Counted from the first letter of the stretch, positions 11,818 to 38,229 are shown. The stretch is 44,050 nucleotides of DNA from a virus (IMGVR_UViG_3300043219_000223:1-44050), one strand, 5' to 3'. Translations and numbers: made by a program. Notes: generated from the sequence alone by a model not told the origin.

Positions 11818-11822
11818 AGGTA

Positions 11823-12221: not shown

Positions 12222-12222
12222 A

Positions 12223-13038: not shown

Positions 13039-13075
13039 TAATGTCTGATAATTTACCAGAAAAAAAGGAGAAGTA

Positions 13076-13393
13076 ATGGAAGTTTTAATGGTTAGGCCGT
13101 ACATCGGCAATCGCAACGAGGTCGTTAGTGACCAGCACGAAATGATAGTTAAGATTAACGCCACTGAATTTGCCCAAATGTGTGGGCTTCCGGGCGGTAG
13201 AGAGTCAATTTCCAAGCTTTTCCAAGGGAAAGAAACAACATTTAATGTTGGGGAAGTGTACAAAGAAGCCCGTGAAATAGTGGACGCACTCCCCGCTATG
13301 ATGACCGCCATTAGAACCATTAACAGTGGGGCCGGTAAACTTGAAAAAGTCCTGACCGCCAAAAAGGAGGACGAAACAGATGCCAAAAGCTAA
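13076..13393 (+). CDS. Hypothetical protein
   Basis: AAGGAG RBS; co-oriented. Confidence 0.7.
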   Translation: MEVLMVRPYIGNRNEVVSDQHEMIVKINATEFAQMCGLPGGRESISKLFQGKETTFNVGEVYKEAREIVDALPAMMTAIRTINSGAGKLEKVLTAKKEDETDAKS

Positions 13394-17947: not shown

Positions 17948-20900
17948 TTATTCTGTTGCTTCTTGAGCGCCTATCAATTCTCTTATTTTTTCAACATCCT
18001 TATTTTTTATAGCTTTTTTAAGTTGTTCAAACTGCTTAAGATCCCTGTTAGCTTTTTGGGCCATTTTTATAAGTTGATTATAAGATGCGTCAATGAGTTG
18101 CCTCTTTTCGTCAGGCTCAAAATTTTGGTTTAAAAAAATAAAATCAATGGTTTTATTATTTGCTCTTATGGCTTTATAGACATTATCTAAACTAACCTCA
18201 AAGTCCTCAATTAGTTCAAGTGCCTCTTCTGGGATTACAATAACCCCCGCCTTAAAAGATGCTTCTTCAACTATTTTTTTGGCGGTCTTAATTGAAGTCT
18301 GGGCTTCAAAATAACTGTCATAAAACTTTTGTATACTTTCTGCCCCAGCAGATGGATGTCTTACCACAAAGGCTTTTATGACTGGCATGTCAGCAAGGGT
18401 AGGAGTGGGCTTGACAGGATCGGGCAAAGCTCCGGCTTTTCTCAGTGCCAGATCTGCTATTCTTAGCACGTGCATCCCAAGGCCACCAGACCAACCCTGA
18501 ATATAATTCTCTATAACAGCAGGAGAAGTTCTCTTGCTGTCCTTAAGTATTGGGAGCGTGCCTAACAACCTTCCTATGGCCTTGGCTGCCTCTGTGGTAT
18601 ATGGCTTGTATTGATATTCAGGTAAAAGTTCCTCCCTGGCTGCGGGGATTATTGGTCTATCCAAAAACAAACTTCTATTTGCAAATTCCTCAATCACAGG
18701 AGTGGCCACTGTAGGCACAATCCCGGGTAGTATTCCTCTCCCAACAGTTTTTAAGAAACCATCGAAGGCATCTGGATCTTTATCCAGTATAAACTCAACA
18801 GCCCTTTCGGCTCCGGTCCCAAAAATAATCCCTATTTCAAATGGTTTAGGTACTCTGTAAATATGATCTTCAGTCATAACAATCCAAAATAAATCTTTCT
18901 GCCACTGAGGAACTTCTTCCCATCTTGGATCTTGGCGATTATGAAGAGTAAGTAAAATGGAAGGCAGAGTGATAGAAGCCGCTACTTTTAATGTAGTTGC
19001 CACGGGTTGATCCTTGAATGCACGAATCATTTTATCACCACCCTGCAACTGTGCGTTAAAAAAAGCGATAAGATTATTCACTGCTTTTGTTTTAGCACCC
19101 ACCCTCATAAAATCAAGAGTAACTTCTCTGGACGCGAAAGCTGCCTCTTCAAGAGAGGCCCCCTTCTTTCTTGCTTTTGAAAATTCTCCAATCCTGGTCC
19201 CGGCTTCACTGAAAGCACTCATTGCCCTTAAAAATTCAATCGGGTTTTTAATAGGGTTGTGGACTGGGGTTTTCATAAGGTTTTTAATATCTTTCTGTAG
19301 GTATTTCCTATCAAGAGATACCATCATTGAGTTTGGTCCGCCGCTCTTTTGCCATTCTCGGTAAATATCATTCTTCCCAGCGAGAGCAAAAACTCCTTTA
19401 AAGGTATCTACTCCCGGAATAAACCCGTACTTAGAAAAGATGAAGGCTGAGAATTGATCTCTGATCGGATTTCTGGCAATAAATTCAGGGGAAAGAATAG
19501 CTCCTGCTCGAAGCGTCCTGGCAGGGATACTCAACAGTTTAACCACAGCGTTCATGCTTTCAGCATCCAGCGCCTGCATAGTCCTGGCTATCTCTGGATC
19601 AACCTGATAGAGTTCACGCTTCCCGTTTCTCCAAACAGAAATAACATTATCTTTCGGGACGAAGGCGGAAGGTCGGAAGATCTCCATTGCCTCTTCCGGA
19701 AGTTCTAAACCAAACTCTTTAATAGTTTCAATGGCTATCCGCTTTTCTACGGTTCGTTCAATTATGGTTGTTCGTTGTTCTGCCGATTCAGCGCCTTTAA
19801 TCCTGGTTAATATCTGGCTTGCTTCTGCCTCAGAGAAACCTCTAGCAGTCAACGCCTCCCTGGCTGTAGCCTCTACCGCCTTTGATGCCTTTGAGGTAGT
19901 TACCTCACCGCCTTCTATTATCTCAGTAACTTCTTCCTTTAATACTCTTTCCTTCTCTTCTATTTTTCTGGTTATGGTTTCCTTACCGAATTTCTTAAGG
20001 GTATTAGCGAGCTCTTCATTGCTTACCTTAATCTTCTGTAGTGGCGTAGGGATTCTCTCAACAAACTTACCCATGCCTTCTTTACTGTTGGCTAAATCAA
20101 CCAGGGCTCTACCGACAGCGTTCTTCTCTGCCAAATTAATATAAAGATATGTATTCTTAATAATTGATTCTAAAGGATCATGAATATCCCTGGCAGAACC
20201 CTTTATGCCCTTGACCGGCTGTCTGGCTTCCAGCCCTTTACCAGCCTTGACAGCGCCACCTTCCTCCATGACTCGAAAGAAAGGCACATAATCTTTATTG
20301 GCCTCGCGCATTTTCTTCACAGCCTCTGCGCTTAGTAGCCCGCTATCAGCTAAATACTGAAGAGTGGCGTCCTGATACTCTTTTAAGTTTTTAAAAACAT
20401 CACTGAATTTATCTGACCTGGTTCCTGGTTCCACAAAATCGAAGTCGTTGACAACCTTCTGAGCATCTTCTTTTAGGATGCCTGTCTCTATGCCTCGCTT
20501 ATTTAATTCAAGCGATCTCTTAGCAACAGCATAAGCCCTGAAATTATCAAGATCATCTTTGATAGGCTCAAGTATAGCTTTTAAAGGTTTTCCAATGTTT
20601 TCTTTTGTCTTAAATTTAAATGGGCTTTTCTCAAAGAAATGTTCAACCTTCCCCTGCCAACCCTTTAGGTTTCTGGCTAACTTGTAAGGGTCTTTCCCGG
20701 CAGGCAACTCTTCGCCCTGAGCCATTGCCTTCACCATCTTGCCAAGTGGATGAAGGTCATTAATGGTAGCCGTGTAGATATCATCTAAAGTGACGGCTCT
20801 CCTCGCTTTTTCTCCAATAGATATCTGACTAAGGACTCTCATTAAAGAGGGCTGTTTAATCCATTTCTCAAACATGTCCCTGGCTTCCGTGAGAATCTCT

Positions 20901-22981
20901 TTTGATTCCGGGCTTTCTTTGTCGAGTGTCTTTTCAAAAAACTTAAAGAATTTAGGGGCCTTAGTTTTGGCCTGCTCTACATCGGTCATATAAAGCCGTA
21001 TGAACTCAGCAAACCCCTCAGGCAAAACATCGGTTCCATGCTTGGCTTTTGTGGCTATGGGCTCCAGTTCACCCCTGAATTTCTCAAGGGGCTTATCGGT
21101 TAAATCTTTCCAAATAAACTTCTGAAGGCCATGGCCAACCTCATGAGCGATGGTTTCAATGTCGTTTGCCAAACGAGTGCGGATGACTTCTGGCTTTATC
21201 TTGAAAATACCACGAACAGCCTTAGCCGCACGGAATCTCCCTGTCCTGATTGGAACGTCAAGTTTCTCATTCAGGAACTTAACAATGTCGCTTCTTTTAA
21301 CAGGGACAGTCTCGGGCCCTTCCCCCGGCTCTACAGGCCGCCTCTTGAATCCTTCTTCTGCGGCAAACTCTAATGTTGATTTACCCGTTGTGGTCTGGAT
21401 TTCTCCATCCCCGTCCACGGTCCGGGTGGTATCTATCGGGGATTGCCTTAAAGAAGAACTGATATTATTAAAATCTTGAAAGCCAGCATCTGCTGCATAA
21501 GCCTCCTCAATAAGGTCTGCCTCATTAAATTCAGCCTCTCTAAAATATCTCTTCATATGATCTACCGTTTCAGGTAAAACACCATGAGTGTCGGCAATAT
21601 CTTTTTTGGGTGTTTTTTGTTCAATGGCGTCACGAACACCATTTAAAATTTCCTCTCCCACTAAGATTAGGTCTTCATTACTGGCTATCTCTGCATGTTT
21701 GGCTTCATGTGTGGCAAATTTGAGTTTTTCTGATTTTGACACGCCACTCGGTATCAGGATTTCTTTTGCATTATGATCAGCGGTGGCCTTTATGCCAGAA
21801 AGAGACTTGTCCCTGCTAGATATATCGCCTAGAGAAGTCTCCCTAATTCTCCATCCTTCAGGCACTGTAACCATATTAGAAATAGTCTCAGTTTCCAAAT
21901 CACTTTCAACCTTAGCGTCTGTCTTTGCTTTAACGGGTTCTTTATATAATTCAGGCACAACCCTATTATCACTCATCAAGTCTTCCCTGATTGCAGGCTG
22001 TTCCTGGATGTCTTCGGTCACCTCAAGAGGGGTTCTCCCCCTAAGACCGTATGTAGTCCTGAGTTTAGAAGAGATTGCAGTACTGGCCTTAAGGCCACCA
22101 ATAACAATGCTAGCATCTATAAACTCTTGAGGTTCAGGAATTTTCCCTTCAAGCAAAGAACCCATAGCAACCATGGCTGTTACTTCTGCTGGCAATTTAC
22201 CCATTCCTGGGAATAGTATCCCAGCCTTACCAGTAGCAAATCCAGTAATTTCTCCCTTCATAGTTTCCCATGCAGCACCGGTCAACCGTGTCCAGAAGTC
22301 AGAGAATGATTGGATATCTCCCTTTTCGTATTTATCCATCAGGACCTTGCGTAGACCAGCAGGCAAAGCAAAAGCACCGGCCACAGCAGATGAAGGGCCA
22401 CCACCACCACCTATCAGACCTCCTGCCACCATCCAAGGGAAGTCCCCAGCAAGGGTAGAGGCTTGAGCAAGCACTCTTGCGCCTCCGGTAAGAAAGTCTG
22501 GGTCAACCACATCAGGGACTTTCTGCGTGGCCAGTAAGCCAGTCACTGAACTTCCGAAGCCACCAACCACTGCTTCCTTAAGAGTAGGTTCAAAGACGTG
22601 TGGTGGCAATCCTGTTTCCTTGGCAAGTGTTAGTGATACTTGAGACTTGACTACCCTCTTTTCAAATGAAGGTTCAAAACTTCTCAGAAATTTATCCCAT
22701 AAAGAGGGGTCTTCTCCCTGTTCAAGTTTTTCATCCCCAGGAGGACCGGCTTTGAGTGATGTTGTAATTCCCCTTGTACTTGTTCTAAAGTCAGGCACAT
22801 TAATAATGCTTTTAACTGAATCTCTCAAACTGGAGTCGTCAATGACAGGTATCCCAACGTGTTCATCTATTTCTTTAGGGGAGAATCCAGCCTCAGAAAG
22901 ATTGAGTCGCTGTTTCTGAATATGCACCCCTATCTCTTCCTGGCTGAATCCAGCCGCTTTTAATTCTGCAATACTGCTCAT
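17948..22981 (-). CDS. Large ejection/polyvalent protein with zincin-like metallopeptidase motif(s) and C-terminal LPD38-like domain
   Basis: HEVGH...EGFAE; ASREVTLDF, FFNA.LQG.DK, W....W.KD.FW, RVPKPFEIG; last of three internal virion genes. Confidence 0.8.
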   Translation of the reverse strand: MSSIAELKAAGFSQEEIGVHIQKQRLNLSEAGFSPKEIDEHVGIPVIDDSSLRDSVKSIINVPDFRTSTRGITTSLKAGPPGDEKLEQGEDPSLWDKFLRSFEPSFEKRVVKSQVSLTLAKETGLPPHVFEPTLKEAVVGGFGSSVTGLLATQKVPDVVDPDFLTGGARVLAQASTLAGDFPWMVAGGLIGGGGGPSSAVAGAFALPAGLRKVLMDKYEKGDIQSFSDFWTRLTGAAWETMKGEITGFATGKAGILFPGMGKLPAEVTAMVAMGSLLEGKIPEPQEFIDASIVIGGLKASTAISSKLRTTYGLRGRTPLEVTEDIQEQPAIREDLMSDNRVVPELYKEPVKAKTDAKVESDLETETISNMVTVPEGWRIRETSLGDISSRDKSLSGIKATADHNAKEILIPSGVSKSEKLKFATHEAKHAEIASNEDLILVGEEILNGVRDAIEQKTPKKDIADTHGVLPETVDHMKRYFREAEFNEADLIEEAYAADAGFQDFNNISSSLRQSPIDTTRTVDGDGEIQTTTGKSTLEFAAEEGFKRRPVEPGEGPETVPVKRSDIVKFLNEKLDVPIRTGRFRAAKAVRGIFKIKPEVIRTRLANDIETIAHEVGHGLQKFIWKDLTDKPLEKFRGELEPIATKAKHGTDVLPEGFAEFIRLYMTDVEQAKTKAPKFFKFFEKTLDKESPESKEILTEARDMFEKWIKQPSLMRVLSQISIGEKARRAVTLDDIYTATINDLHPLGKMVKAMAQGEELPAGKDPYKLARNLKGWQGKVEHFFEKSPFKFKTKENIGKPLKAILEPIKDDLDNFRAYAVAKRSLELNKRGIETGILKEDAQKVVNDFDFVEPGTRSDKFSDVFKNLKEYQDATLQYLADSGLLSAEAVKKMREANKDYVPFFRVMEEGGAVKAGKGLEARQPVKGIKGSARDIHDPLESIIKNTYLYINLAEKNAVGRALVDLANSKEGMGKFVERIPTPLQKIKVSNEELANTLKKFGKETITRKIEEKERVLKEEVTEIIEGGEVTTSKASKAVEATAREALTARGFSEAEASQILTRIKGAESAEQRTTIIERTVEKRIAIETIKEFGLELPEEAMEIFRPSAFVPKDNVISVWRNGKRELYQVDPEIARTMQALDAESMNAVVKLLSIPARTLRAGAILSPEFIARNPIRDQFSAFIFSKYGFIPGVDTFKGVFALAGKNDIYREWQKSGGPNSMMVSLDRKYLQKDIKNLMKTPVHNPIKNPIEFLRAMSAFSEAGTRIGEFSKARKKGASLEEAAFASREVTLDFMRVGAKTKAVNNLIAFFNAQLQGGDKMIRAFKDQPVATTLKVAASITLPSILLTLHNRQDPRWEEVPQWQKDLFWIVMTEDHIYRVPKPFEIGIIFGTGAERAVEFILDKDPDAFDGFLKTVGRGILPGIVPTVATPVIEEFANRSLFLDRPIIPAAREELLPEYQYKPYTTEAAKAIGRLLGTLPILKDSKRTSPAVIENYIQGWSGGLGMHVLRIADLALRKAGALPDPVKPTPTLADMPVIKAFVVRHPSAGAESIQKFYDSYFEAQTSIKTAKKIVEEASFKAGVIVIPEEALELIEDFEVSLDNVYKAIRANNKTIDFIFLNQNFEPDEKRQLIDASYNQLIKMAQKANRDLKQFEQLKKAIKNKDVEKIRELIGAQEATE

Positions 22982-25341: not shown

Positions 25342-27491
25342 TATTTATTCTCCACGTTAAATTCCGGGACAATACCCAGGAGTGTCATTGGTAAAGGGCC
25401 TTCCTGGGTGATAAACATCGTTGCTTTATCGTCCCAATCTCCAGCGAACTCACCAAGGGCATCACCGGTAAATAAATTAGAAGAAGCTCCCAGATTAATA
25501 CTGAATAAATTACTCAATGACTCTCCATACTTAACACCGTAAGACTGATAAAGAATAATAGTCAGAGCATTAATCCTCTGTTTTTTACCTCTTGAAATAC
25601 CTTGATTGGTATTCACAGACGGCTTCATGGGTTCTATCACCGGAGTATATGGCAATCCAACGGCAGCCTTATCACCGGCAACATCAGCAGTTACCTGGCC
25701 ACCAGACACGGTTTCAGACGCCAAGGCAACACCATCCATAAGAATAGCAACCTCTTCTCCTTCAAGGTGTTCAAGCCCGGTCAAAACCTGAATACCAGAT
25801 CCTTCATAAGACTTTCCAGAGTGAACAAAGAAGGAGTTATCAATATCATTATAAAGCTCAAAGTCCGTGAAATATTCTACATATCTTACGGTCGAGCCTT
25901 CAATGGTGCGGTTCACGATAACCCATATCTGATCTTCCTGAGCATCTTCATCAATCACAGCCACGGATTCATATAGGCCATCAGTAACCAACCTAAACCA
26001 TCCGAAGATATTCTCCTGGGACTCATAGGTCATGCCGAGCAGCTGCCCATCTTCACGAACGCACCAAAGTAAAGGTACGGGGTCGCCCTGGAAAGCCATA
26101 TCAACTATCCCGGTAAGTGCCCTGGTATCCCCAAAGGCAATATGCTTTGCAATCCTGGTCATGTCCGGAGCAATAAAAGAGTCAGAGGATATGGAAAACT
26201 CAAATTTCCTCACGGTGGTCCCTGACCTGGAAGTCCAGAAAACAGTATTATCAACCGAGACAGAATCAATATTTTTCACACCGGAAGAAATTTCCTTTGA
26301 GGCAACCACATTGGTTGCTGTAATAGGATCATTTACATTCGTACCTCCGATTTTCCAGGCGCCCCCGGTGGTCCCGACCAGCACGAATTTCTTACCAACC
26401 AACCACCTTATCCGGTCAACCCGGTCAGAGCCAATCGTATACTCAATAGCATCCGCATCGTCAACCCCGAAATCAAAGGTATCAAAATCGGCACTGGCGG
26501 AAAACACTATGGTTTGAGGTTTATTGTTTGAGCCAGCCATACAAAGACGTTGTTCAAAAAACGTGCCGCAGGAAGGCCGGTTGTCCTCAGTCCCGTAATA
26601 AGTCTCTTGAGCGGTTCCGGCAGAACTATAAGCGGTAAAAGTCTGAGAGTCAATCCCGACCAGTTCAAAAGTTCCGCCCGCCCCAGCAACCACATTAGCC
26701 ACAGTAAAAAACTGGTCATTCAATTCGACCATGCCAACAATATCAGCCAGGTAAACAATATCACCGTCTTCCAAGCCATCAACTCCATCCAAAGCCACCG
26801 GAGCAGGGACAGTGGTACATGTCACTACTGCCGGGTCAGCTTGAGTAATGTCAGTAATATCCATCTCAGCACCAATATGAGAGATGTGATTCGTGAGCGT
26901 CCAGTCAGTGTCACCGAACCTGGCAAGCTCCTTTGTTGGATAGGACGGATGGAATATCCACATCACATCAGCAGATTGAATAGTCTTAAGTCCGAAAAGA
27001 TCGGCCTCAAGATAAGGAGTAGGAACCTCATAAGCCAAATCAGTTGCCCCGCCAGTAGCCTCCCACAACCCATCGGAAAGGTCAGTGGCAAATGTCCCGG
27101 ACGTGTGGGCCTCCAGACACCGGTAATGATTTCCGCCCTCAGTAACCAGGTCACCCAGAGCATAGGCAGTAGCCGTATTCCAAGCGACATAAGCAATCTG
27201 TAACTGGCCATCATCCCGATAAAACCTGACATAAAGATTCCCAAACTCTAAGACATAGGCCTCTTGATCAGAAAACTGGAAAGGAATCAACCTGGATTCT
27301 TTAGAGCTGTCTTTTGTCTCAGCCGCAAAAACCGTCCCGGGCATCTTCTGGCCGCCGCCCTCTACCAGGGGAAACATATTCTGCATGGTCTTGCATCCAG
27401 AATAATATTTCTCAATATCTGTCCGAGCATCGACCTTGGGACTTAATTCCCCAGCGTTGAAATTATTTATATTTGGAGTTGCTTTAGCCAT
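25341..27491 (-). CDS. Tail nozzle / tail tubular protein B
   Basis: NFNAGELSP...RTD..KY, LIPFQFS, LEFG..Y.RF, QSADV, FFEQRL, GLEHLEGE.V, GLPY; inserted carbohydrate-binding-like and ITQADPAVVT domains. Confidence 0.9.
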   Translation of the reverse strand: MAKATPNINNFNAGELSPKVDARTDIEKYYSGCKTMQNMFPLVEGGGQKMPGTVFAAETKDSSKESRLIPFQFSDQEAYVLEFGNLYVRFYRDDGQLQIAYVAWNTATAYALGDLVTEGGNHYRCLEAHTSGTFATDLSDGLWEATGGATDLAYEVPTPYLEADLFGLKTIQSADVMWIFHPSYPTKELARFGDTDWTLTNHISHIGAEMDITDITQADPAVVTCTTVPAPVALDGVDGLEDGDIVYLADIVGMVELNDQFFTVANVVAGAGGTFELVGIDSQTFTAYSSAGTAQETYYGTEDNRPSCGTFFEQRLCMAGSNNKPQTIVFSASADFDTFDFGVDDADAIEYTIGSDRVDRIRWLVGKKFVLVGTTGGAWKIGGTNVNDPITATNVVASKEISSGVKNIDSVSVDNTVFWTSRSGTTVRKFEFSISSDSFIAPDMTRIAKHIAFGDTRALTGIVDMAFQGDPVPLLWCVREDGQLLGMTYESQENIFGWFRLVTDGLYESVAVIDEDAQEDQIWVIVNRTIEGSTVRYVEYFTDFELYNDIDNSFFVHSGKSYEGSGIQVLTGLEHLEGEEVAILMDGVALASETVSGGQVTADVAGDKAAVGLPYTPVIEPMKPSVNTNQGISRGKKQRINALTIILYQSYGVKYGESLSNLFSINLGASSNLFTGDALGEFAGDWDDKATMFITQEGPLPMTLLGIVPEFNVENK

Positions 27492-27553
27492 TAGTTAACT
27501 ATCTCCTGTCTGGAGCATTTTGCTAATCATTTCGTAGTCTTTGGTTTGTTTTA

Positions 27554-28192
27554 TCATTTTGTCGGTAATCCTGTCGGGATAAGTGTAGGTGCTGGCCTGT
27601 TCGCACTGGCATCAGCAGCGGCAGTGACCCTAACGTGAGTGCCTGATGGATCTTTAAAGGCAAGACCACCACCCTCTGCTTCTCCGAACATTACAGCGTA
27701 TGCATATGCCTGAGATTCCTGCCAAGTCAGACCTATATCTACTTCATCTACTTCTGGGTTGTAATCATATAGAGCCGCAATATCTGCTTCAGCCTGAGTA
27801 GCTGCAACCCCTACATACGGCAATTCTGGGACCAAAACAAATTCCATCTGGGTGGGGTCTGCACCGTCTGCAATTACTGTCACGGTTACTGACCACGCAC
27901 CCACAGCAAAAACGACATCTGGCAAGTCTAATCGGTATATTCCGGGATGGGCTGTATCATCGACTTCCAGAAACCCCCAATCAAGATGAGGGTCATCTAA
28001 CTGCGGAGTAGCTAAGTCAACAAGTCCACCTGATGCAGCAACAACAAAATCGTTATCTATTTCAACCCTGACATAAGATGCATCGGCACCAGCAGAGTCA
28101 AACACTAATCCTGTAAGTGGCGCACCAGCCTCGTCCCTGATGAAGATTGATACTGAATAATCGGTCATCCCCTGTTTAATTTCTTGTTTCAT
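27554..28192 (-). CDS. Acidic virion accessory protein
   Basis: G..EVD....PGIYRLDLPD..FA.GA motif; structural block. Confidence 0.65.
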   Translation of the reverse strand: MKQEIKQGMTDYSVSIFIRDEAGAPLTGLVFDSAGADASYVRVEIDNDFVVAASGGLVDLATPQLDDPHLDWGFLEVDDTAHPGIYRLDLPDVVFAVGAWSVTVTVIADGADPTQMEFVLVPELPYVGVAATQAEADIAALYDYNPEVDEVDIGLTWQESQAYAYAVMFGEAEGGGLAFKDPSGTHVRVTAAADASANRPAPTLIPTGLPTK

Positions 28193-28198
28193 AATTTA

Positions 28199-28942
28199 TT
28201 ACCCCGTCATTAATCCTAAATTTCCACCTAAAGAATTTCCATCCATGCCATGACCATCTAAAAGAAGAGTTGAACCACCAGCCACACCATCACCGATAAA
28301 AATCAAATCCTCTGTATAACCGTCACCGTGTATATTAGGGTTAGGAGATGAAGCATTATGTAACCCCGCTGGAACAATTACAAAATTTAACATCTGTAAA
28401 AGTGTTAGGTGTTCGGCATTTACAGTAAGAGTTGTTAAAAGGTTAGTTCGTCCTGCATCCGAATAAAGGCCCATTACATATAACCCTTTGCTAAAAGTGC
28501 CAGCTCCGGCAGTGTAGTTTATTGTAGGATAACCCGTAAACGGGGTAGAGCCTATTGAATAAGTTTCCTGCTCTATGCTCCCAGGGTCTTCTTTCCCTTC
28601 ATTTACCGTCAAATCTATGCGATTCGGGGTTACAGAAGAATCAACAATACGCACTCTCACACCGTTATAATCATTAAAATCAGTCATATCGTGAAGTGTG
28701 TCTGACATGAAAAAATTCGCTACTTGATAAACACCCCCACCCCGATCTATATTGGCATAATTTAATCCAAATGTTATTTCAAGATCATCATCTGACAAGA
28801 GATTATAAGCTAATGATCCTGTCTTCTCCTCAATTATTCTTGTCTGTAGTTCTAACCAAGACATGGTTGACGCTATAGCAGATATTTCAGCATCGGTATC
28901 GGCTATAGTAAATTCAGTGAAATCAAATTGCTTTGTTCCCAT
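28199..28942 (-). CDS. Beta-rich (lectin-like) virion accessory protein
   Basis: Acidic, beta-strand-rich composition; Gly-rich C-terminal tail. Confidence 0.55.
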   Translation of the reverse strand: MGTKQFDFTEFTIADTDAEISAIASTMSWLELQTRIIEEKTGSLAYNLLSDDDLEITFGLNYANIDRGGGVYQVANFFMSDTLHDMTDFNDYNGVRVRIVDSSVTPNRIDLTVNEGKEDPGSIEQETYSIGSTPFTGYPTINYTAGAGTFSKGLYVMGLYSDAGRTNLLTTLTVNAEHLTLLQMLNFVIVPAGLHNASSPNPNIHGDGYTEDLIFIGDGVAGGSTLLLDGHGMDGNSLGGNLGLMTG

Positions 28943-28944
28943 TC

Positions 28945-29352
28945 CTAATCCTCAAAATCCTCAATAGCTACTGCCCACTCAGACACTGGCATTTTAAAGT
29001 CACCGCCCGGAGTTAGGATTAAAGGTGCATCCATATCATCGGGAATATCCGGTATAGATGCTTCTGTCATTCGTTGAGCTTGCCGACCTTTGGCATCATT
29101 GAACTCTTCAATCCAATTCATAAATCTCCGCTTCTGAAACCGTCTGAAATCCTGCTCTGATAACTTAAGATTTACAGGCATTGAATTGACAAGGGGGGAA
29201 GCCATTCGTTTAAGAGCCTCATACTCGTCAGCGGTCAGTCCAACTCGATACCATTTACCCATAATCCTATGAATAAATTCAGAATAACCTTTTAACTTAT
29301 AGGCGTGGTCTATTTTTTCTCTGGGGATAATCACCCCTGTTGGATATTTCAT
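28945..29352 (-). CDS. Hypothetical small protein
   Basis: AAGGAG RBS; precedes the 247-aa gene. Confidence 0.65.
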   Translation of the reverse strand: MKYPTGVIIPREKIDHAYKLKGYSEFIHRIMGKWYRVGLTADEYEALKRMASPLVNSMPVNLKLSEQDFRRFQKRRFMNWIEEFNDAKGRQAQRMTEASIPDIPDDMDAPLILTPGGDFKMPVSEWAVAIEDFED

Positions 29353-29364
29353 TAATATTTCTCC

Positions 29365-31248
29365 TTAACTCGTTCGGCTAAACCAATTTTTGCTGAACCA
29401 TCTTGTACTGAACCAATTTTTACTAAACCACTTACCACCAGTGGTCAGAACGACCCCCTGGTCTATCTCAAACCATACTGTTATGGTTACATCCTCCACA
29501 TATGCAGGGCTGTTTGAGTAATGCATATCCACCCAGAAGCCGTCAGTTGTGCCGTCTATCGGGTCATTTATATTGCCTCTTCTTAACCTCTCGTATCTGT
29601 TGGCAATAGCTGTCATACCGACAGCCCCAACGTGTAAATCTGCATGATTGTCTATATCGCACTTACTTCCGTTCACATGTATAATAAATAAGTAAGCGTC
29701 AAATTCTGCGTTCACATGAGTTGTGAAGATATTGGCATCAAATGTTTTCAGTAAAATACCTGGGCTATCATTCAGTTGCTCAAAAGAAATATGATAAACG
29801 TCCACATCGGTTAGTGTCAGATCCGTGGTCGATAAAACCACTGAACCCTCAAACCACTTTGAGCTAATGTAAGCACCAGTGAAAGTGTGGACAGTATTTC
29901 CATTCGCATCTGTGGTTGTTCCGTCTACGGTCAAAGCATCTACCGGGATAATATCTGTGTCAGCTACAGTCACTGCTCCAGTATTCCGATCAACTGTATC
30001 CCCGGTTATTATAATATCCCCAACCAGATCAGACCCGGCATTGACAACTATCATTACCTTGCCGATGCCCTTAGTTACTGGTAAATCGGTAGGTCCCGGA
30101 TCTAAAGGCTGCCCGGTTGCGAGGGACAACAAACCACCATGCCAGTTTGTCTCGGACGCTCTTGATGGTTCAGCATCGTACATATCCAATGACATTAATT
30201 GGGGAGGTAATCCGAGAGTCTTAAAGTCTAAAACACCTGCACCGCTTGTTACCAATATCTGGTCTTCCTGCCCATCAGAAAGGGGAACAGTATAAGAATT
30301 AAGACCTCCAAAAGATAGAGACGGAACAGAAGCGTCAATACTTATCACTGGATTTCCATTACCGTCAGAGTTCCCGCTTAATTCCTCAATAAAGAAGATG
30401 TTGATGGGGTTTATCCAGATGATGCCCGTAGTATCATTGGCCTTGATAACAATTCCTATAAATATCTTTCGCTCAGTTCCTACCGGGAGTACATTTGTCA
30501 ATCTCCCAGATGTATTGGATACAAAAAGCCGCTCGTTATCTCCCCACACTTCACCAACTGGTGTACCAGAAGTGTCGATATCTCTGACCAAACCATTTGT
30601 GGTTACATATCCATTGCCATTAGTATTAACATCCTCAGTAAATACCCCAATCGACTCCATCGCTATAGGATCATCAGCTTCTGAAAAACCGAACTCTGGG
30701 CTGTTCCCTGATGCCCCGCTTATTCTTACTGGTCGTCCGTCAGTAGTTCCTGTGCCAGTGGTGTTTTTCCCTCGAATTAATAACTCAAGCCCGTTTTGTA
30801 GATTAACATTCCCGCCTTTTAGCCCGGTATTTATTACACCTTCGTCATCATTCCAGACTTGCCGGCCTTCTGCGGGGGGTACACCGTTGGTAAGATTGAA
30901 ATCAATATACCCGACATCTGTTATAGGGTTGTCAGTCATATCTAAAATATCAGTTAAAGTCATACCAGCAAATGTCGGGTTAGCCCCGGTGTGAATATCC
31001 TGTGGAGTGGAGGCTGTCGCCGTCCCATCACCATCATCAGTTATGATTACCTGATTCGTAGTGCCTTTAAGCCAATTTGAAATACTGGTAGAGACTAAAT
31101 TTTTATCGCCATCAGTGGCCACAAGACGGTTCGCAATAAGTCCAACGGCAGTCGTAAAACTCATATAGAACCGAGCCACACCATCGGTCCAGACAAACTG
31201 TGAAAGTTGCCTTAGTTTTCTATGAAACCCTCTTTTACCTAAACCCAT
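29365..31248 (-). CDS. Tail fibre/appendage-like protein
   Basis: GTTNQV..TD.GDGT, PQDIHT.A.PTFAG, KN.TG..DG.PV.ISG, G.VTT.GLVRDIDTS, GQ.L.T.G.G.L fibre motifs. Confidence 0.7.
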   Translation of the reverse strand: MGLGKRGFHRKLRQLSQFVWTDGVARFYMSFTTAVGLIANRLVATDGDKNLVSTSISNWLKGTTNQVIITDDGDGTATASTPQDIHTGANPTFAGMTLTDILDMTDNPITDVGYIDFNLTNGVPPAEGRQVWNDDEGVINTGLKGGNVNLQNGLELLIRGKNTTGTGTTDGRPVRISGASGNSPEFGFSEADDPIAMESIGVFTEDVNTNGNGYVTTNGLVRDIDTSGTPVGEVWGDNERLFVSNTSGRLTNVLPVGTERKIFIGIVIKANDTTGIIWINPINIFFIEELSGNSDGNGNPVISIDASVPSLSFGGLNSYTVPLSDGQEDQILVTSGAGVLDFKTLGLPPQLMSLDMYDAEPSRASETNWHGGLLSLATGQPLDPGPTDLPVTKGIGKVMIVVNAGSDLVGDIIITGDTVDRNTGAVTVADTDIIPVDALTVDGTTTDANGNTVHTFTGAYISSKWFEGSVVLSTTDLTLTDVDVYHISFEQLNDSPGILLKTFDANIFTTHVNAEFDAYLFIIHVNGSKCDIDNHADLHVGAVGMTAIANRYERLRRGNINDPIDGTTDGFWVDMHYSNSPAYVEDVTITVWFEIDQGVVLTTGGKWFSKNWFSTRWFSKNWFSRTS

Positions 31249-32172
31249 CTACCACCTGCCCGCGCCAGACCAGGAATTATCCCCAGTCTCGGACTCAAGG
31301 AAATCAAGTGATTGATCGAGGCCAACAGCCCCTTTCAATGCCTGCTCGTACCTGATCATGGCCTGCTCTTCTTTTGTTGTCGAATTGGTAACCTTGATGG
31401 CCAGTTCAGCGGCAATCCTCCAAGCCAGGGTATCTACAAATTTTGCTGTATAGTTCGGTAATGCACCCTCTCCGGCCAGGGCAAAAGTATAAGGGTTCTC
31501 ATCACTGTCATTATTCGCGATGCTCACGGTAGCCGTATAATCTCCCACAACAGACGGAGTAAAATCTATTGTGAACGTAGAGCTTTCTCCCGAGGCAATC
31601 GGGCTTGAAGCGTCAGCACCCAGAGTAAATACTTCTGTGTCGCCGGTGATTGTCACAGCTGGAGAATCTGTAAGGTAGAGATCACCCAGCCCGCTATTTG
31701 TTATAACGAAATCTTGACTCAAGCCACCAACCGCTCTTCTGATGTATGTAAGAAATAAATCACCGTTATCACTGTCATAATCAGTAAAAAGGCACTCTGT
31801 TCCATCGTCAAGGGTTTCCACCACATATGTAAATTTATAACCAACCGCACAAATAAATCCATTTAGACCAACATAGTTCCCTGATTCAAAAACAGCCGGG
31901 TCCAGTTCTTTCTCCTGGAAGATTCTCATAAAATCATCGGGGATAAGATATGCGAAATCGTAAAAGTTCGCCGGAGTGGTCCCGCTCTTTACCAGGGCAA
32001 CCCTGATCTTAGCAAACCTCCAATCGGCGGATTCAAGAACCTCATCCTGCATGAAGTCATATACAGCATTGACATCTCTGGCCCTGTCAGAGTCTTCCGT
32101 GAGGGAATTTATCTTTGCGGCCCCAAGATTTCTCAATGCTTTGTTGGCTATTTCTAATTTGGTGTATGCCAT
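31249..32172 (-). CDS. Tail adaptor (tubular protein A) paralog with an inserted partial Ig-like domain
   Basis: Clearly homologous to 36460-37137 (MAYTK..IAN.AL, DWRFAK.RVALVK, ETLDDGTEC, ETGD.SW.GAGR) plus an 88-aa insert. Confidence 0.85.
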   Translation of the reverse strand: MAYTKLEIANKALRNLGAAKINSLTEDSDRARDVNAVYDFMQDEVLESADWRFAKIRVALVKSGTTPANFYDFAYLIPDDFMRIFQEKELDPAVFESGNYVGLNGFICAVGYKFTYVVETLDDGTECLFTDYDSDNGDLFLTYIRRAVGGLSQDFVITNSGLGDLYLTDSPAVTITGDTEVFTLGADASSPIASGESSTFTIDFTPSVVGDYTATVSIANNDSDENPYTFALAGEGALPNYTAKFVDTLAWRIAAELAIKVTNSTTKEEQAMIRYEQALKGAVGLDQSLDFLESETGDNSWSGAGRW

Positions 32173-33578
32173 CAGGATATACCCGCCTTGCCAAAATCAG
32201 TGCCATCATCCTCAGACGGCGTGACATCTCCGTCAATTATCTCAATATCATTCCCGGTAATACACATCTCAGGAGCTACCCCGGCCCCGGACACGGCGAA
32301 AGTATAAGGGTTCTCATCTGAATCGTTGTTGGCGATTGAAATCGTGGCGGTGTATGAAGCCACGGCGCTTGATACGAATGAAATTATAAAAGTAGCACTT
32401 CCACCTATCGCCACAGAAGTAGGCGCGTCCGTATCCAGCGTGAACTCTGCATCATCGCCTGTAATAGTCACTCTGGGCGTATCTGTAAGATAAAGAATCG
32501 CATCGCCAGTGTTCTTTATCGTAAAGGTATGCGTTACCTCAATCCCAACAGTGTTATTCCCCCAGGCCGTATCATTGTCCACGGATGAAATAGTAGAGCC
32601 ATCAGGAATGGATTCCCCCTTACCCTGTACGTCCATCTCTGGAAAGGTATTAGCCTCAGAAGCGCCCATTGACCATGGACCGATTATAGGACTTCCTCTT
32701 TTATTTATCGGTACATCAATTTCAGGCCATGTGGCAGGATTAAATGTTGTTCCCTGTCCCTCAATGTCTGCACCAGATTTAATGGTAAGGTCAGTAGCAG
32801 TCCAGGGCGCACCAACTGGATTAACAAGTTGGTCCGCAGTGGTTAGATTTATTAGACTGTTCGCCCCTTCTGTGGCAGAGCCGTCAGCGGTGGCGTTATA
32901 GTCCTGTTCACCCTGGGTGCTTTCTATGTCAACCGTCTGCCCTAAAACAGCATTGTTTTTTAGAATATAATTATCAAAAAAACCGCCTTCTACACCCAAT
33001 TCTCCACATAACGCTATAGTATTATTGGCAACAAATGTATCGTCAGGCACACTGCTTATCGTCACCCCAATATCAGGAGTCCCATAAATAATATTTCGAT
33101 AGAATCCAATAGCACCTGGCGCGGCTTGTACGCCGACAAGATGCGCTCCGGGAGTTGCCGCACTTACATGCTCATTGTTATTATGAATAATAAGATGATG
33201 GAAACGCCCGTAATTGGCTGTATCGCCACTTCTGAATCTGAAATTTGCATTTGCCCCTGGGCCTTTCAGTTCAAGCCATGACATCTGAACGTATACGTCT
33301 AAAACTTCTGCTACTGTGGCCCCGGAAACCTCCACCCTTGCATTACCCTTACCTGAAACCTCATGCGCACGTCCATCAGGTTCTGCGCCAACCAACGAGT
33401 GAAGATCTGGGAAATTAACAGCCGTATAATTCCGGCTATCACTAAAAGAAAATGCGCCAAAAACCTCAGCCTTACATTCACCAATATAATGATTACCAGT
33501 ATTAACTCTAAACGCTATCCAGAGAGATATGTCGGTATAAGTTTCACCAGTTCCAATGGTGTCGGTAATGGTAGCCAT
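32172..33578 (-). CDS. Beta-helix-like virion protein with choice-of-anchor-D/ASH-type Ig-like domain
   Basis: NIIY/NNTI/KNNA parallel beta-helix pattern; FTIKNTG...SIANNDSDENPYTF. Confidence 0.75.
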   Translation of the reverse strand: MATITDTIGTGETYTDISLWIAFRVNTGNHYIGECKAEVFGAFSFSDSRNYTAVNFPDLHSLVGAEPDGRAHEVSGKGNARVEVSGATVAEVLDVYVQMSWLELKGPGANANFRFRSGDTANYGRFHHLIIHNNNEHVSAATPGAHLVGVQAAPGAIGFYRNIIYGTPDIGVTISSVPDDTFVANNTIALCGELGVEGGFFDNYILKNNAVLGQTVDIESTQGEQDYNATADGSATEGANSLINLTTADQLVNPVGAPWTATDLTIKSGADIEGQGTTFNPATWPEIDVPINKRGSPIIGPWSMGASEANTFPEMDVQGKGESIPDGSTISSVDNDTAWGNNTVGIEVTHTFTIKNTGDAILYLTDTPRVTITGDDAEFTLDTDAPTSVAIGGSATFIISFVSSAVASYTATISIANNDSDENPYTFAVSGAGVAPEMCITGNDIEIIDGDVTPSEDDGTDFGKAGIS

Positions 33579-34150
33579 TAGATATCCTTGAATTTTGCGG
33601 CAGGAATAGGCTTGTCAAATCTCGGTCTGACGATTTTTGATTTATCTTTAATTTTAATCAGTGTATCGCCTGAAATCCCTTCATCAGCGTCAAAGTCAAA
33701 TACTTTTTTGTATTGCCAAGACTCCACCTGTGCAGGGGCAGCGTCTTCATTGGTAACGATGAGTGCTATTTTAAGAATATGCTCACTAAATAAAACAGTC
33801 TCGTAAGCCCTTTTATTGGACTCTGGGGCGTAATTAATATAGCTTAACAATCCAGTATCTTTTATATGCTTATCCCAAAAAACCTGTGGGTAAGTATAAT
33901 CTCTAAAAAGTAAATCACTGGCTTTAACCCAAGCATCCCTTATCCCAGGATTGTCATCCCAAGCCTCGCATATATATTTCCATCCAGGGATTTTAGCATT
34001 TTTATACGCATCTCTTTTCATTGGCCCTGGTTGAGGGAAATCACAAAATACTTGTATCCAATACCGCATGATTCGTGGATCAGAATAAACAGCAACCACA
34101 TAACCAAGAGGCGATTCAGGGTTGTCAATATTTAAGGCTATCTCTGACAT
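33578..34150 (-). CDS. Hypothetical protein
   Basis: Stop/start overlaps on both sides. Confidence 0.7.
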   Translation of the reverse strand: MSEIALNIDNPESPLGYVVAVYSDPRIMRYWIQVFCDFPQPGPMKRDAYKNAKIPGWKYICEAWDDNPGIRDAWVKASDLLFRDYTYPQVFWDKHIKDTGLLSYINYAPESNKRAYETVLFSEHILKIALIVTNEDAAPAQVESWQYKKVFDFDADEGISGDTLIKIKDKSKIVRPRFDKPIPAAKFKDI

Positions 34151-35511
34151 TATCTCACCAAATCCCTGACGAGCGGTCCAACTAGAGGCCGGACGAGTTT
34201 GCCAGCATCAGAGGCAGATATACCCGTTCCGGCAATATCAAACGTGTAAGGGTCTTCATTATCGTCATTGTTGGCGATGGAGATATTGGCCTCAAATAAG
34301 CCAGCCCCACTCGGAATAAAGCTGATAATAAAAGTCGTGTCACCCGCCGGGGTAACAGGTGAACCTGCATCTGTGTCTAAAGTGAACTCTCCAGTATCGC
34401 CAGTGATTACGACTGCTGGGCTGTCAGTGAGGGTTAGGTTGGCATCCCCTGAATTGCCGATAGTGTATGTAATCTTCTTCTCTTCGCCTTCAATCACTTC
34501 CTCAAAATCCGTACCGTTTGCCGCACTCGGAGATGATGAGCCGTTGGTTATTGGATTACCGTTTCCAGTGATGTCTATCTCTTGGGCGACAAAATCAGCA
34601 AAACCAAGATCCCCCCATGTTCTGGTATTTCCCCGAACATCATCATCAAATGGATAGGTCGCATCTCCTGATAAATTAGTAGTTCCATTCCCAATAGCAT
34701 CACTGTCACTGGCAGGGATGTAATTGTTTGCCCCTGTCAGGTAAGTGAAGTTTAAATTTTGTAATCCAACTGACCCTGAAGCGTCAGATGAGCCACAGGT
34801 TGTGAGGTTCAGTGTGCCGCCATCTTGTAAATAATCTCTACCTACAATGGAAGCACCGTCAGACAGACCATTCTTTACGTTCATGGTTCCCGATATGCAA
34901 ACAATGCCCTGTTGTGACCCAATACTGGTGGGGTTGTAATGATACCCAGTTCCAGTTGAATGAGCAAAATTAGTAAGATCAGTATCCGCAATCAGGCAAT
35001 CAACCGACCCACCATTGACAGTTAAAATTCCTTGAGTCTGGCCAGCCCCTGTGTTGGTACTGCCTGCCGACAATAATCCAACCACCGTGCTATTTACGGA
35101 ATTTGGAACCGCAAGTAATGGATTACCGGCTGAACTAACTGTATGTTTTAATGAAATATCCTGAATTTGACAATACTCTTCCACGAGGTCGAGTATTTTG
35201 TCTGATACAGTATCTACTAAAGCTAATACACTACCATCATATTTTGGTATTCCCGGAAAAAGTCCGGTTGGGCCACCCTCTCCAACCGCTGGCCTGAAGT
35301 TTCTGCCATAAGTGGCATTATTAGTAGCCCCTGTAAATGTAAGAGTTTTATCATAAACCCCGGCATAACCCTCCATGGTAGGTGATGACTGGGCGGTTAC
35401 ATTATCCCCGTCTGTAAGATCAGCCATATCCTGCGGGTCATCAACATCACCACCTGTGAGCTTTAAGGTGGTGATTACTTCATTGGTGAATGTATGCCTT
35501 GCGGAGGCCAT
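34150..35511 (-). CDS. Beta-helix-like virion protein with C-terminal Ig-like domain
   Basis: G/T/S/N-rich; EIDITGNG...NGTDF...SIANNDDNEDPYTF; LVxx tail. Confidence 0.75.
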   Translation of the reverse strand: MASARHTFTNEVITTLKLTGGDVDDPQDMADLTDGDNVTAQSSPTMEGYAGVYDKTLTFTGATNNATYGRNFRPAVGEGGPTGLFPGIPKYDGSVLALVDTVSDKILDLVEEYCQIQDISLKHTVSSAGNPLLAVPNSVNSTVVGLLSAGSTNTGAGQTQGILTVNGGSVDCLIADTDLTNFAHSTGTGYHYNPTSIGSQQGIVCISGTMNVKNGLSDGASIVGRDYLQDGGTLNLTTCGSSDASGSVGLQNLNFTYLTGANNYIPASDSDAIGNGTTNLSGDATYPFDDDVRGNTRTWGDLGFADFVAQEIDITGNGNPITNGSSSPSAANGTDFEEVIEGEEKKITYTIGNSGDANLTLTDSPAVVITGDTGEFTLDTDAGSPVTPAGDTTFIISFIPSGAGLFEANISIANNDDNEDPYTFDIAGTGISASDAGKLVRPLVGPLVRDLVR

Positions 35512-36077
35512 TAGCGCACCATCCTTTCAGCGTGGCGAAATTTACCGCCAACACTGATAAGACGAAAAGGGTTATCATCGAGATTTAAAAAGAACTCATT
35601 CTCTGATCCAGCATCATCACAGGCACATTCAAAGTCACTTTCTGAGAACAGATGATTTGGCTTTCTATTCTTAAAACCTTTATATCTGGATAACTTTACA
35701 GGGTCTTTGGTGTTCAATGGGGAAGCTTTGCCATCAAAGTCTTTGGCACAGTCGGAGGCACGAAGCCAAGGCTGAACTGCTCGATCAGGGTTCCTGATTG
35801 CCCCAAAATTAATTCCTTTCGTCCAATCACCAAGGTGTTGAAGAGACATGTTCCCAACCCAGAAAGAATTTGAAAGCCCGGTCACTGGATCAGTAACAGT
35901 CCTCCTCATGGTCTGCCTAAGATCCTCTTCTGTCTCAACAAGAATATAAAGGAAATTTCTGAGGCTTAATAGGCCATAGGTGTTCTTGGGATAAAGAGAG
36001 ATATCCCGTATCTGACCACTCTTGATATTGCCAGAGGGAGAATTATTAATCTTTGTTTTAATCACGAATTTAAACAT
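35511..36077 (-). CDS. Hypothetical basic protein
   Basis: GGAG RBS; stop/start overlap with the next gene. Confidence 0.7.
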   Translation of the reverse strand: MFKFVIKTKINNSPSGNIKSGQIRDISLYPKNTYGLLSLRNFLYILVETEEDLRQTMRRTVTDPVTGLSNSFWVGNMSLQHLGDWTKGINFGAIRNPDRAVQPWLRASDCAKDFDGKASPLNTKDPVKLSRYKGFKNRKPNHLFSESDFECACDDAGSENEFFLNLDDNPFRLISVGGKFRHAERMVR

Positions 36078-36107
36078 ATCCCACTCCCTAATTCCTATCC
36101 TTGGCTT

Positions 36108-36446
36108 TCAGAAAAACCGTGATCCTCTTCTTCTGTCTGCACCGGCCTTAATCCCAGCCGTGGCAGTCCCAGAAGCATAAGCCGTGGTCGAAACCCTGTA
36201 CTGCTCACCGGTGCCGACAAACTCAAAAGATCCTTCTGCCGTCTGATCACCCTCGCCACCAACAACCACCCAGCCAGGAGTGACCCCATTTGAAGGATCA
36301 TGAAGTACCTCAAGGCTGATAGTCATGCCCATGCTGCTCGTATCTTCAACAAAAAATGTAGCCCGGCCATCAACCCTTATCGAGTCTGAGTTCTCACTGT
36401 TTTCCGTAAAGGCATAAACAACGGCATTTCCTTTTAATTCAGTCAT
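36108..36446 (-). CDS. Small beta-sandwich virion protein
   Basis: AGGAG RBS; T.SLE...YRV...AY.SGT pattern. Confidence 0.7.
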   Translation of the reverse strand: MTELKGNAVVYAFTENSENSDSIRVDGRATFFVEDTSSMGMTISLEVLHDPSNGVTPGWVVVGGEGDQTAEGSFEFVGTGEQYRVSTTAYASGTATAGIKAGADRRRGSRFF

Positions 36447-36459
36447 TTAAAAATCTCCT

Positions 36460-37137
36460 TTAAATATAAACCCCACTTCTGCCAGCTCCTTGCCAGGAAA
36501 AATCCCCTGTTTCATTTCGCAAGAAATCCATGGACTGATCTAGTTCTTTAGCACCCTTCAATGCCTGTTCGTGCCTGGTCTGGGCAATGTCAGCACCAAC
36601 CTTAGACTCTGTTCTCCTGGTGACCAGCTCAATGGCTATTTTCCAGGCAAAGGCATTGATAAAACGTGCTGTATATTTAGTAGGATCATCTACCCTTCTG
36701 ATGTACGTCAGGAACAGATCATCCACATCATTATCGTAGTTAGTAAAAATGCACTCGGTTCCATCGTCCAGGGTCTCAATCACATAGAAGTACCGATATC
36801 CCTTGGAGTAAATATAACCATCCCAAGAAACGAAAGGCCAGGGAGTGGCGGCCAGCAAGGCCGGATCGCCTGCTTTTTCCTGGAAAATCTTCATGAAGTC
36901 GGAGGGCAGTGTATAGGCAAAATCATAACGGGAAGCGGGTGCGGTGGAGTTCTTTACCAAGGCAACGCGAACTTTAGCGAACCTCCAGTCAGAAGACTCA
37001 AGAGTCTCATCTCTGGCGAAATCATAGACATCATCAATTTCATTCGCCTGGACTGAGCCGTCAGAAAAAGAAGTGATCTGATCCACCCCGATCTTAATCA
37101 GAGCAAGGTTCGCTATACCCACCTTGGTATATGCCAT
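36460..37137 (-). CDS. Tail adaptor / tail tubular protein A
   Basis: IANLAL..IG...ITSF.DGS..A, W.FA..R..L, Y..AY.LP.D, F....AW..A.EL. Confidence 0.85.
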   Translation of the reverse strand: MAYTKVGIANLALIKIGVDQITSFSDGSVQANEIDDVYDFARDETLESSDWRFAKVRVALVKNSTAPASRYDFAYTLPSDFMKIFQEKAGDPALLAATPWPFVSWDGYIYSKGYRYFYVIETLDDGTECIFTNYDNDVDDLFLTYIRRVDDPTKYTARFINAFAWKIAIELVTRRTESKVGADIAQTRHEQALKGAKELDQSMDFLRNETGDFSWQGAGRSGVYI

Positions 37138-37140
37138 AAA

Positions 37141-37377
37141 TTACTCCTGTTCAAACATCTCTGGAGAATTAGGAAACATGTGCTTTCCGGCAGCCACATT
37201 TTCCATGGCCTCTTTTTCTTCCTTGTTCTCATCAGCCATTTTTATGGCGGCTTCCTGTGTCTTATTCATTCTACCGGCATCAGCCTTTATCAACTCAGCC
37301 TCAGCCAGTGTCCGGGCATCATCCCTAGCCCTCCACTCCTCGTCAGTCAACGAGTCGTATCCTATTCCAAAAGGCAT
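37141..37377 (-). CDS. Hypothetical protein
   Basis: AAGGAG RBS; WRA.DDARTL.EAE.IK.D..R motif. Confidence 0.7.
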   Translation of the reverse strand: MPFGIGYDSLTDEEWRARDDARTLAEAELIKADAGRMNKTQEAAIKMADENKEEKEAMENVAAGKHMFPNSPEMFEQE

Positions 37378-37390
37378 AATAAACTCCTTA

Positions 37391-37425
37391 AAGAAAGGGC
37401 CCTGCCGAAACAGAGCCCTTTTCGG
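37391..37425 (-). terminator. Intrinsic terminator after the capsid genes
   Basis: Minus strand GGGCTCTG-TTTCGG-CAGGGCCC-TTTCTTT. Confidence 0.7.
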
Positions 37426-37824
37426 TTAGGTTTCTTGGTTAGCTGTCTGTTTCTTCAGGCAATGAGGCCGGTGAGATGCTACCTGCTGTGCGTTTCCTTT
37501 GTACTCATTGCACACATCACAGGTAACTTCCGCAGGCGCATTGCCCTCAGGAGGGTCCGGACCACCTTCAGGGATCTCTTCCTCAGCATCAGGAGCAGTC
37601 GCCGCTTCCGCCAGTTCCTTAACCATATTCTCAAGGCGCTTAACATTGGCGGTAAGGTCTGCAACTTCGTCACCAGCAGAAGGAATGGAATCAACCTCAA
37701 TGAAATGGTTCAACTTACCATTCTTATCCTTGGGCCCATCCTTTGCTTTACTGAAACGAGCTGGGTCGCCTTTGGCGTATTTCTTGCCATTGTGCCAGCA
37801 CGGTTTTTCACATACAAACGGCAT
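37426..37824 (-). CDS. Head-region protein with C-terminal Zn-finger
   Basis: CDVC...H..HC; short coiled coil; AAGGAG RBS. Confidence 0.7.
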   Translation of the reverse strand: MPFVCEKPCWHNGKKYAKGDPARFSKAKDGPKDKNGKLNHFIEVDSIPSAGDEVADLTANVKRLENMVKELAEAATAPDAEEEIPEGGPDPPEGNAPAEVTCDVCNEYKGNAQQVASHRPHCLKKQTANQET

Positions 37825-37833
37825 AATTGCTCC

Positions 37834-38229
37834 TTAAATTGCTGTCGGCATAGGGGTAAAATAAGCTGAGAGAACATAATCCTCAGTACCGCCAATTATG
37901 TTATAATAGAGCCTAACATATCGGAGCAGCTTGATCCCCTGCGGTAGAGTGATAACAACCTGATCTCCAGCGGTAAGATCAGCCGCTAAAGCGTGGACTG
38001 TCACCAGGTTAGCGTCACTTGTTGTAGGCTCACTGGTTTTGTGAACCACGATGAAATCAATACCAGTGGCGGCCGTATTTACGGTTTCAATGCTGACAAT
38101 AACCGCTGCTGGCATTGTCTTATCCCACCCTGGAATAGTGATCTCAGTATCCAGATATTTCGTACTATCCGCGTCAGCGGCCACGTTCTGAGATTCACTC
38201 AGCACTAATGCTCTATCTCTGTATCCCAT
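37834..38229 (-). CDS. Capsid cement protein (Bbp16-like)
   Basis: D..L.LS..Q.V..DA.ST..LD, ADL.AG, LRYVRLYY, SAY; directly after the capsid gene. Confidence 0.8.
   Translation of the reverse strand: MGYRDRALVLSESQNVAADADSTKYLDTEITIPGWDKTMPAAVIVSIETVNTAATGIDFIVVHKTSEPTTSDANLVTVHALAADLTAGDQVVITLPQGIKLLRYVRLYYNIIGGTEDYVLSAYFTPMPTAI

Follow-up and report, generated by a model that had tools for sequence, protein, structure and literature searches.

An Ig-like domain of a podophage is divided between two neighbouring genes, its first strands ending a beta-helix protein of 468 residues and its remainder lying inside the second of the phage's two head-tail adaptors, the 307-residue AD2. We consider it an even bet (probability about 0.5) that this is a working split-domain tether, produced by a block move and acting on a single or mixed adaptor ring. 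The C-terminal peptide of the 468-aa protein and the AD2 insert would refold together, with strand A predicted to lie against strand B and strand A′ against strand G, and, provided that AD2 is built into the virion, this refolding would probably attach the beta-helix protein to the adaptor ring. AD2 would join the intact adaptor AD1 in a mixed ring or form a ring of its own, and a formerly covalent domain would have become a non-covalent tag and socket. More tentatively, and at rather less than even odds, we propose that a virion docking interface was born in this way, the domain having been cut at the one loop where it could be grafted, so that up to twelve beta-helix appendages could plug into the portal adaptor ring.

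The window, meaning the whole 44,050-nt contig analysed here, is by gene content a near-complete podophage. Profile matches identify a terminase, a portal (PF12236), a GP7-type capsid, a Bbp16 cement protein, internal virion proteins, two phrog_394 adaptors and one phrog_376 nozzle; from the Bbp16 match and the gene order, we label the phage BPP-1-like. The sequencing run that contains it is labelled marine sediment metagenome, and its GTDB matches are distant (23–36% identity) and indicate no host. A 1,677-aa internal virion-type protein at 17948–22981 carries an LPD38 domain. The interval 27000–38000 shows no excess of promoters or terminators, and no tRNA was found. The features needed below are as follows.

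36460..37137, minus strand: AD1, intact head-tail adaptor of the tail tubular protein A type, 225 aa (phrog_394, E 4.5e-36; profile matches the Carin-1 connector 8ck1_E)
34150..35511, minus strand: 453-aa beta-helix protein (beta-helix look-alikes in the ESM Atlas)
about 34584–34222, minus strand: the one intact choice-of-anchor D domain of the 453-aa protein (NF012200, 59 bits)
34150–34200, minus strand: C-terminus of the 453-aa protein, a short four-residue basic repeat
33578..34150, minus strand: 190-aa orphan that accompanies the 468-aa family (homologs lie directly upstream of 468-aa homologs in loci L108 and L109)
32172..33578, minus strand: 468-aa protein, with a Pel9A-like right-handed beta-helix (residues 1–312), an intact Ig1 and the N-fragment of Ig2
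32280..32636, minus strand: intact Ig1 of the 468-aa protein, residues 315–433 (Ig profile and NF012200)
32175..32273, minus strand: donor fragment P436–S468, predicted strands A and A′ of the split domain (profile positions 1–30; complex-model contacts)
31249..32172, minus strand: AD2, second adaptor of 307 aa and sister of AD1 (58% identity); 94 residues lie between its R146 and Y241
31735..32172, minus strand: AD2 N-half (1–146), helices and beta-dock barrel (profile and model)
31465..31731, minus strand: acceptor fragment V148–G236, strands B–G of the split domain (profile positions 37–123; NF012200, 46.3 bits against a cut-off of 45)
31249..31452, minus strand: AD2 C-half (241–307), two helices and a conserved C-terminal motif (invariant family residues kept; model)
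29365..31248, minus strand: 627-aa putative fibre, whose N-terminus resembles that of the gene after the single adaptor in locus L007
25341..27491, minus strand: nozzle of the tail tubular protein B type, 8,969 bp from AD1 (phrog_376, E 2.5e-173)

The divided domain and the second adaptor

An earlier note, made by inspection of the DNA, had described a second Ig-like domain broken off at the end of the 468-aa ORF, with the missing remainder inside a duplicated tail adaptor. This description stands. The N-part is P436–S468 (32273–32175) and the C-part is AD2 148–236 (31731–31465); on the minus strand the order is Ig-N, adaptor-N (1–146), Ig-C, adaptor-C (241–307), every frame is open, and the stop of the 468-aa gene overlaps the start of the 307-aa gene, which suits a tether. 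AD1 and AD2 are indeed sister genes, with support of 100/98 in a 52-row tree.

An Ig profile built from 10 cellular domains matches the tail at positions 1–30 and the insert at positions 37–123 of 123, so that the two matches do not overlap, and NF012200 covers the AD2 insert from profile position 35 onward. The best in-silico join of the halves scores 136 bits, more than either of the phage's two intact copies (127 and 119). All three choice-of-anchor D copies exceed the NF012200 cut-off of 45 (46.3, 59.0 and 59.1 bits); the domain is expected whole in one chain, and the third copy is divided between two ORFs. Among 1,574 domain matches there is none in which an N-part of choice-of-anchor D ends a protein.

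The register claimed for the two interleaved parts is less exact than the earlier note had it. For the Ig domain, the spacing TDF-x16-NSG had been equated with that of the intact domain; x16 is found in 72 of the 590 scorable natural domains, but x17, found in 468, fits slightly better (join scores 19.3–19.9 against 17.1), while x14 occurs in 10 and scores at most 11.5. For the adaptor, the spacing RR-x6-YTA agrees with the family, in which the linker between barrel and helix 3 has six residues and a strong pattern in 51/51 aligned rows, against 94 residues in AD2. The residues themselves do not agree: all seven six-residue remainders of AD2 score −21 to −30 on a linker profile whose 51 members (AD1 and 50 homologs without large inserts, our own selection) all score +4 or more. 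Judged by its sequence, AD2's own linker is replaced or remodelled, not simply opened, since no remainder fits the family and the residues after the final GxG resemble an Ig inter-repeat linker; of 558 natural domains, 218 have a P at position +3 from that GxG. Junction residues that match no family linker would suit a tether remodelled over time. They may also simply be Ig-derived, in which case they carry no date.

AD2 otherwise has the marks of an adaptor. It matches phrog_394 (E 8.4e-35), lies between the capsid genes and the nozzle as expected of a T7 gp11-like protein, has a helix bundle and a beta-dock in its predicted model, and retains the residues that do not vary in its subfamily, those of the C-terminal motif included (17 rows, AD2 among them). 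Its C-half is nearer to the family than that of AD1 (0.42 against 0.36). The place of the insert is unusual: large inserts (at least 25 residues) occur in 14 of 66 homologous adaptors, 12 of them at AD1 positions 86–131, one at 60–66 and one near the C-terminus, and none of the 66 has an insert at the linker or one that is Ig-like. The stretch AD1 139–169, which contains the AD2 insertion site, is without an indel in 50/50 homologs. This rigidity counts against a working insert and for a recent accident. Separately, a group of adaptors of 330–390 aa carries large domains of at least two unrelated kinds in the loops of the beta-dock. The members of this group are:

P0014, P0084, P0087, P0088, P0090, P0093–P0097, P0099, P0101; L022, L043, L046, L050

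Predicted fold completion and the beta-helix partner

Modelled alone, AD2 reaches a mean pLDDT of 83.9, mostly 87–98 in the adaptor blocks and 60–87 in the insert blocks; the last Ig strand is unformed in this model, for which just two alignment rows covered the insert. The model matches the Carin-1 connector 8ck1_E (E 9.7e-10, TM 0.78 by target), and also LME-1 orf17 and T7 gp11 (E 6e-4).

A complex model of AD2 with the 36-residue tail of the 468-aa protein, which the earlier note had put forward as the check on fold completion in trans, scores 0.74, 0.71 and 0.74 in three runs against 0.02 for the best control. At least 95% of contacts are common to the runs, the partner has a pLDDT of 85, and the mark passed is one that 116 of 157 solved complexes attain, against 2 of 215 mismatched pairs. 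The model supports fold completion in trans, but the parts of one divided domain tend to succeed in such a test through their resemblance, so that it shows that the halves are compatible, not that they bind in the cell. Residues 6–10 of the peptide are predicted to pair with AD2 155–159 (strand B), and residues 28–30 with 232–234 (strand G). The likeness to pili drawn in the earlier note needs correcting: in the model the donor's C-terminus supplies the first strands of the domain, A and A′, the reverse of the pilus arrangement.

The modelled interface includes AD2 147–151, where the insert is entered, and 228–239, where it is left, so that entry and exit lie together and both touch the peptide. 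In a whole Ig domain the two ends lie at opposite poles. It would follow that a whole domain could not fit into a six-residue linker, and that the cut at the A′–B loop is what brings entry and exit to one end, a geometry favourable to the tether.

The 468-aa protein is assigned to the right-handed beta-helices on the strength of PF13229 matches in 7 of the 26 members of its family and of ESM Atlas look-alikes of its N-domain (TM 0.66–0.85); it is a possible glycan-binding appendage. All 25 of its beta-helix homologs have C-terminal extensions, which vary and in 11 cases are short tails of 19–33 residues; none of the 25 carries the phage's Ig domain. The 453-aa protein ends in its basic repeat and the 468-aa protein in its Ig fragment. 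These ends suggest that the C-terminus would be the attachment point of the 468-aa protein, which suits the tether.

Several smaller observations concern the same genes. The region 33578–36077 consists of tandem modules, each an orphan of about 190 aa followed by a beta-helix and choice-of-anchor D protein; the beta-helix parts of the two modules have no BLAST similarity to each other. The 190/468 pair recurs without Ig in L108 and L109, which are phages of other layout, and in L109 (9932–12681) the beta-helix homolog lies in two frames (matches at 9932–10258 and 10213–12681), by a frameshift or a sequencing error. The 627-aa protein ends (29365–29430) in a five-residue aromatic and basic repeat with 15-nt spacing, and many of the beta-helix homologs have a short tail, basic or aromatic, at the C-terminus; such C-terminal repeats and tails are possibly anchor peptides. 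The nozzle carries a CBM_5_12-like insert (residues 103–133) and an E1_FCCH-like insert (238–296).

Comparison with known attachment systems

In fold and position AD2 resembles the podophage adaptors, namely T7 gp11, the Carin-1 connector (8CK1), LME-1 orf17 (9EFK) and phrog_394. The beta-dock domain of adaptors attaches fibres or collars, according to the available part of one source (PMC13730344). What distinguishes the present case is that there are two copies per genome and that one holds a partial Ig insert in the RR-x6-aromatic linker.

Chaperone-usher pili share with it an incomplete Ig-like fold that is completed by a peptide of another chain, here by prediction. The pilus donor is an N-terminal extension that fills a groove between strands A and F, as described in the portion of PMC10673952 that was available. 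A pilus acceptor thus lacks its last strand and takes an N-terminal donor, whereas here the first strands are lacking and the donor is C-terminal; pili moreover need a chaperone and an usher and polymerise, whereas here there is one donor and one acceptor. Among the matches listed for the 38 ORFs scanned, none is to a chaperone or usher Pfam family.

An analogy may be drawn to the branched systems of Klebsiella podophages such as KP32, where a conserved peptide of 29 residues in RBP2 serves to dock a further appendage to the virion (PMC13352976, from the accessible text). The KP32 peptide sits at an N-terminus and recognises a whole T4 gp10-like domain, the branching domain of a second receptor-binding protein, RBP1; the present one is C-terminal, is derived from an Ig domain and would complete a fold, and its socket is a choice-of-anchor D part in an adaptor. 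Choice-of-anchor D (NF012200; Pfam PF22544) normally occurs as whole repeats in long cellular proteins, in contrast to the one split copy here. In Erwinia phage S6, gp095 has two whole domains of this kind that are proposed to serve in particle attachment (PMC9544554, in the part consulted). Gene layouts in which a coding unit is broken and other coding sequence lies between the pieces are described for fractured phage genes with split inteins, in what was available of PMC2677866; those halves are ligated by trans-splicing, whereas here the matches listed include no intein or endonuclease family.

If the tether works, phages can invent an attachment point by scrambling two neighbouring genes, and the ancestral whole domains and an intact adaptor are still adjacent for comparison. 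Fold completion on the adaptor would then join fibre docks, collars and branching peptides as a means of attachment at the podophage neck, and nature would offer a tag of 33 residues with a socket of 89. Should the arrangement be a tolerated accident, it would remain a clean case of in-frame gene interleaving, of modest weight.

Origin of the arrangement and rival readings

The gene order is what a single block move would give, and from it we infer such a move: the back three quarters of Ig repeat 2 would have left the upstream gene and landed in the duplicate adaptor, in the linker that joins its beta-dock barrel to the final helices. Any event that cuts a domain and moves one part leaves two halves that fit, and selection is not required to account for it. 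The final 9 nt of the 468-aa gene agree at 8/9 with the end of the Ig in the 453-aa gene, a likeness of DNA which suggests that these three codons are the old domain end (x14). The breakpoints are nevertheless ambiguous, the protein profile preferring a clean cut after S468 with the tail running into V148 (x17), and microhomology at the junctions does not reach significance (P 0.06 with the amino acids given and 0.16 for randomly chosen places).

The strongest rival is that this move was a recent one-off in a spare adaptor: the halves would bind by descent, AD2 would be unneeded or absent from virions, and there would have been no time to decay. We rate it a serious contender that falls clearly short of even odds. 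AD1 is intact and could serve alone, so that AD2 may be dispensable, and the 8/9-nt match looks as if the middle of a domain had been lifted out. The interval between adaptor and nozzle, 8,969 bp here against −3 to 3,677 bp (median 24) in 103 other loci, points to a recent mosaic, and the phage encodes a recombination pair, exonuclease VIII-like and RecT (12058–14516), that could drive mosaicism in the tail region. Against this reading, three in-frame junctions, a cut at the one loop that brings entry and exit to one end of the domain and a landing in an inter-domain linker would be several coincidences if unselected; the junction microhomology is not significant; and a single form is seen at depth 50, in contigs that drop rare variants.

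Decay does not decide between the tether and the accident. The tail scores 30.6 bits against 26.4 and 17.5 for the intact copies, and the insert 98.9 against 99.9 and 92.5; among 237 natural domains the tail ranks at the 34th percentile and the insert at the 30th. By these profile scores neither half has decayed, AD2 keeps its invariant residues, and the adaptor part models well, all of which favours a working tether; absence of decay also fits a recent event. The duplication of AD1 and AD2 should be old, or one copy should come from a related phage, given their 58% identity and their saturated synonymous sites (pS 0.63–0.96). The same saturation means that the split has no date.

The search for the same split in relatives, which the earlier note had recommended, returned none across adaptor loci, sequence representatives and phage records, a result that speaks against the tether and for the one-off. 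An adaptor is held by 135 of 137 loci from other contigs (83 clusters at 90%), and 79 loci (46 clusters) run from capsid or portal to nozzle; the 135 adaptor loci contain no clear second adaptor and no copy of the phage's Ig. In the 1.1-kb locus L104, two overlapping ORFs (162–864) match the adaptor profile and are probably one frameshifted gene. Among 1.84 billion representatives there were 14,629 matches, of which the best 150 comprise AD2, AD1 and long Ig-repeat proteins and nothing else; the Ig-repeat proteins dominate this search and could hide a distant adaptor–Ig chimera below 237 bits. The 120 phage records matched were hit in one place each, and none has the layout described here. In IMG/VR, scans with the single 307-, 468- and 627-aa proteins returned solely the phage's own contig, a scan with the alignment of AD1 and AD2 brought in L007 as well as three distant loci, each with one adaptor and without Ig, and the Ig pattern gave 70 stretches, two of them confirmed and both on the phage's own contig; 50,697 phage records held no match to that pattern. 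The literature we searched, which left out most subscription papers, contained no report of a phage adaptor with a split Ig. The layout thus appears as a singleton among the sequences searched.

It is improbable that AD2 forms a second ring stacked under AD1, as in crAss-like phages, with the split domain as its fibre dock. In favour of it, the two ring genes are paralogs, the fibre-like 627-aa gene follows AD2 much as its counterpart follows the single adaptor of L007, and the available part of PMC10172136 provides the precedent of more than one adaptor-fold gene. The same text gives the crassvirus rings as 15–31% identical and conserved across the order, without a split domain, whereas AD1 and AD2 are 58% identical, end in the same C-terminal motif, and have only each other: two genes here, and no clear second copy in the 135 related loci.

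We give almost no credence to a re-joining of the block at the level of DNA, RNA or ribosome (site-specific recombination, splicing, or hopping between look-alike hexamers) that would restore whole proteins, since the loose six-letter motif common to the three junctions is frequent (94 matches in the genome) and not significant, the contigs show no alternative joint, and removal of the block leaves no family-like linker.

Misassembly among the Ig repeats or adaptor copies, named in the earlier note among the findings that would overturn its account, is very unlikely. The stretch 29000–37500 lies unbroken within a single Logan contig of 30,122 nt and depth 50, and the IMG/VR contig agrees with the window over 17,286 nt with zero mismatches and one 6-bp gap outside the split region. 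The Ig repeats are at most 80% identical over 50 nt, too little to confuse an assembler, and no alternative joint was found among the Logan contigs (which drop rare variants) at 90% or 80% likeness. The comparison is at contig level, and the three agreeing assemblies are probably from one sample.

The 6-bp gap lies at 36121, where 6 bp present in both the IMG/VR and the Logan contigs are missing from the window, either as a strain variant or by an assembly error in the window; once the 6 bp are restored, the 112-aa ORF at 36108–36446 reaches a stop at 108 aa.
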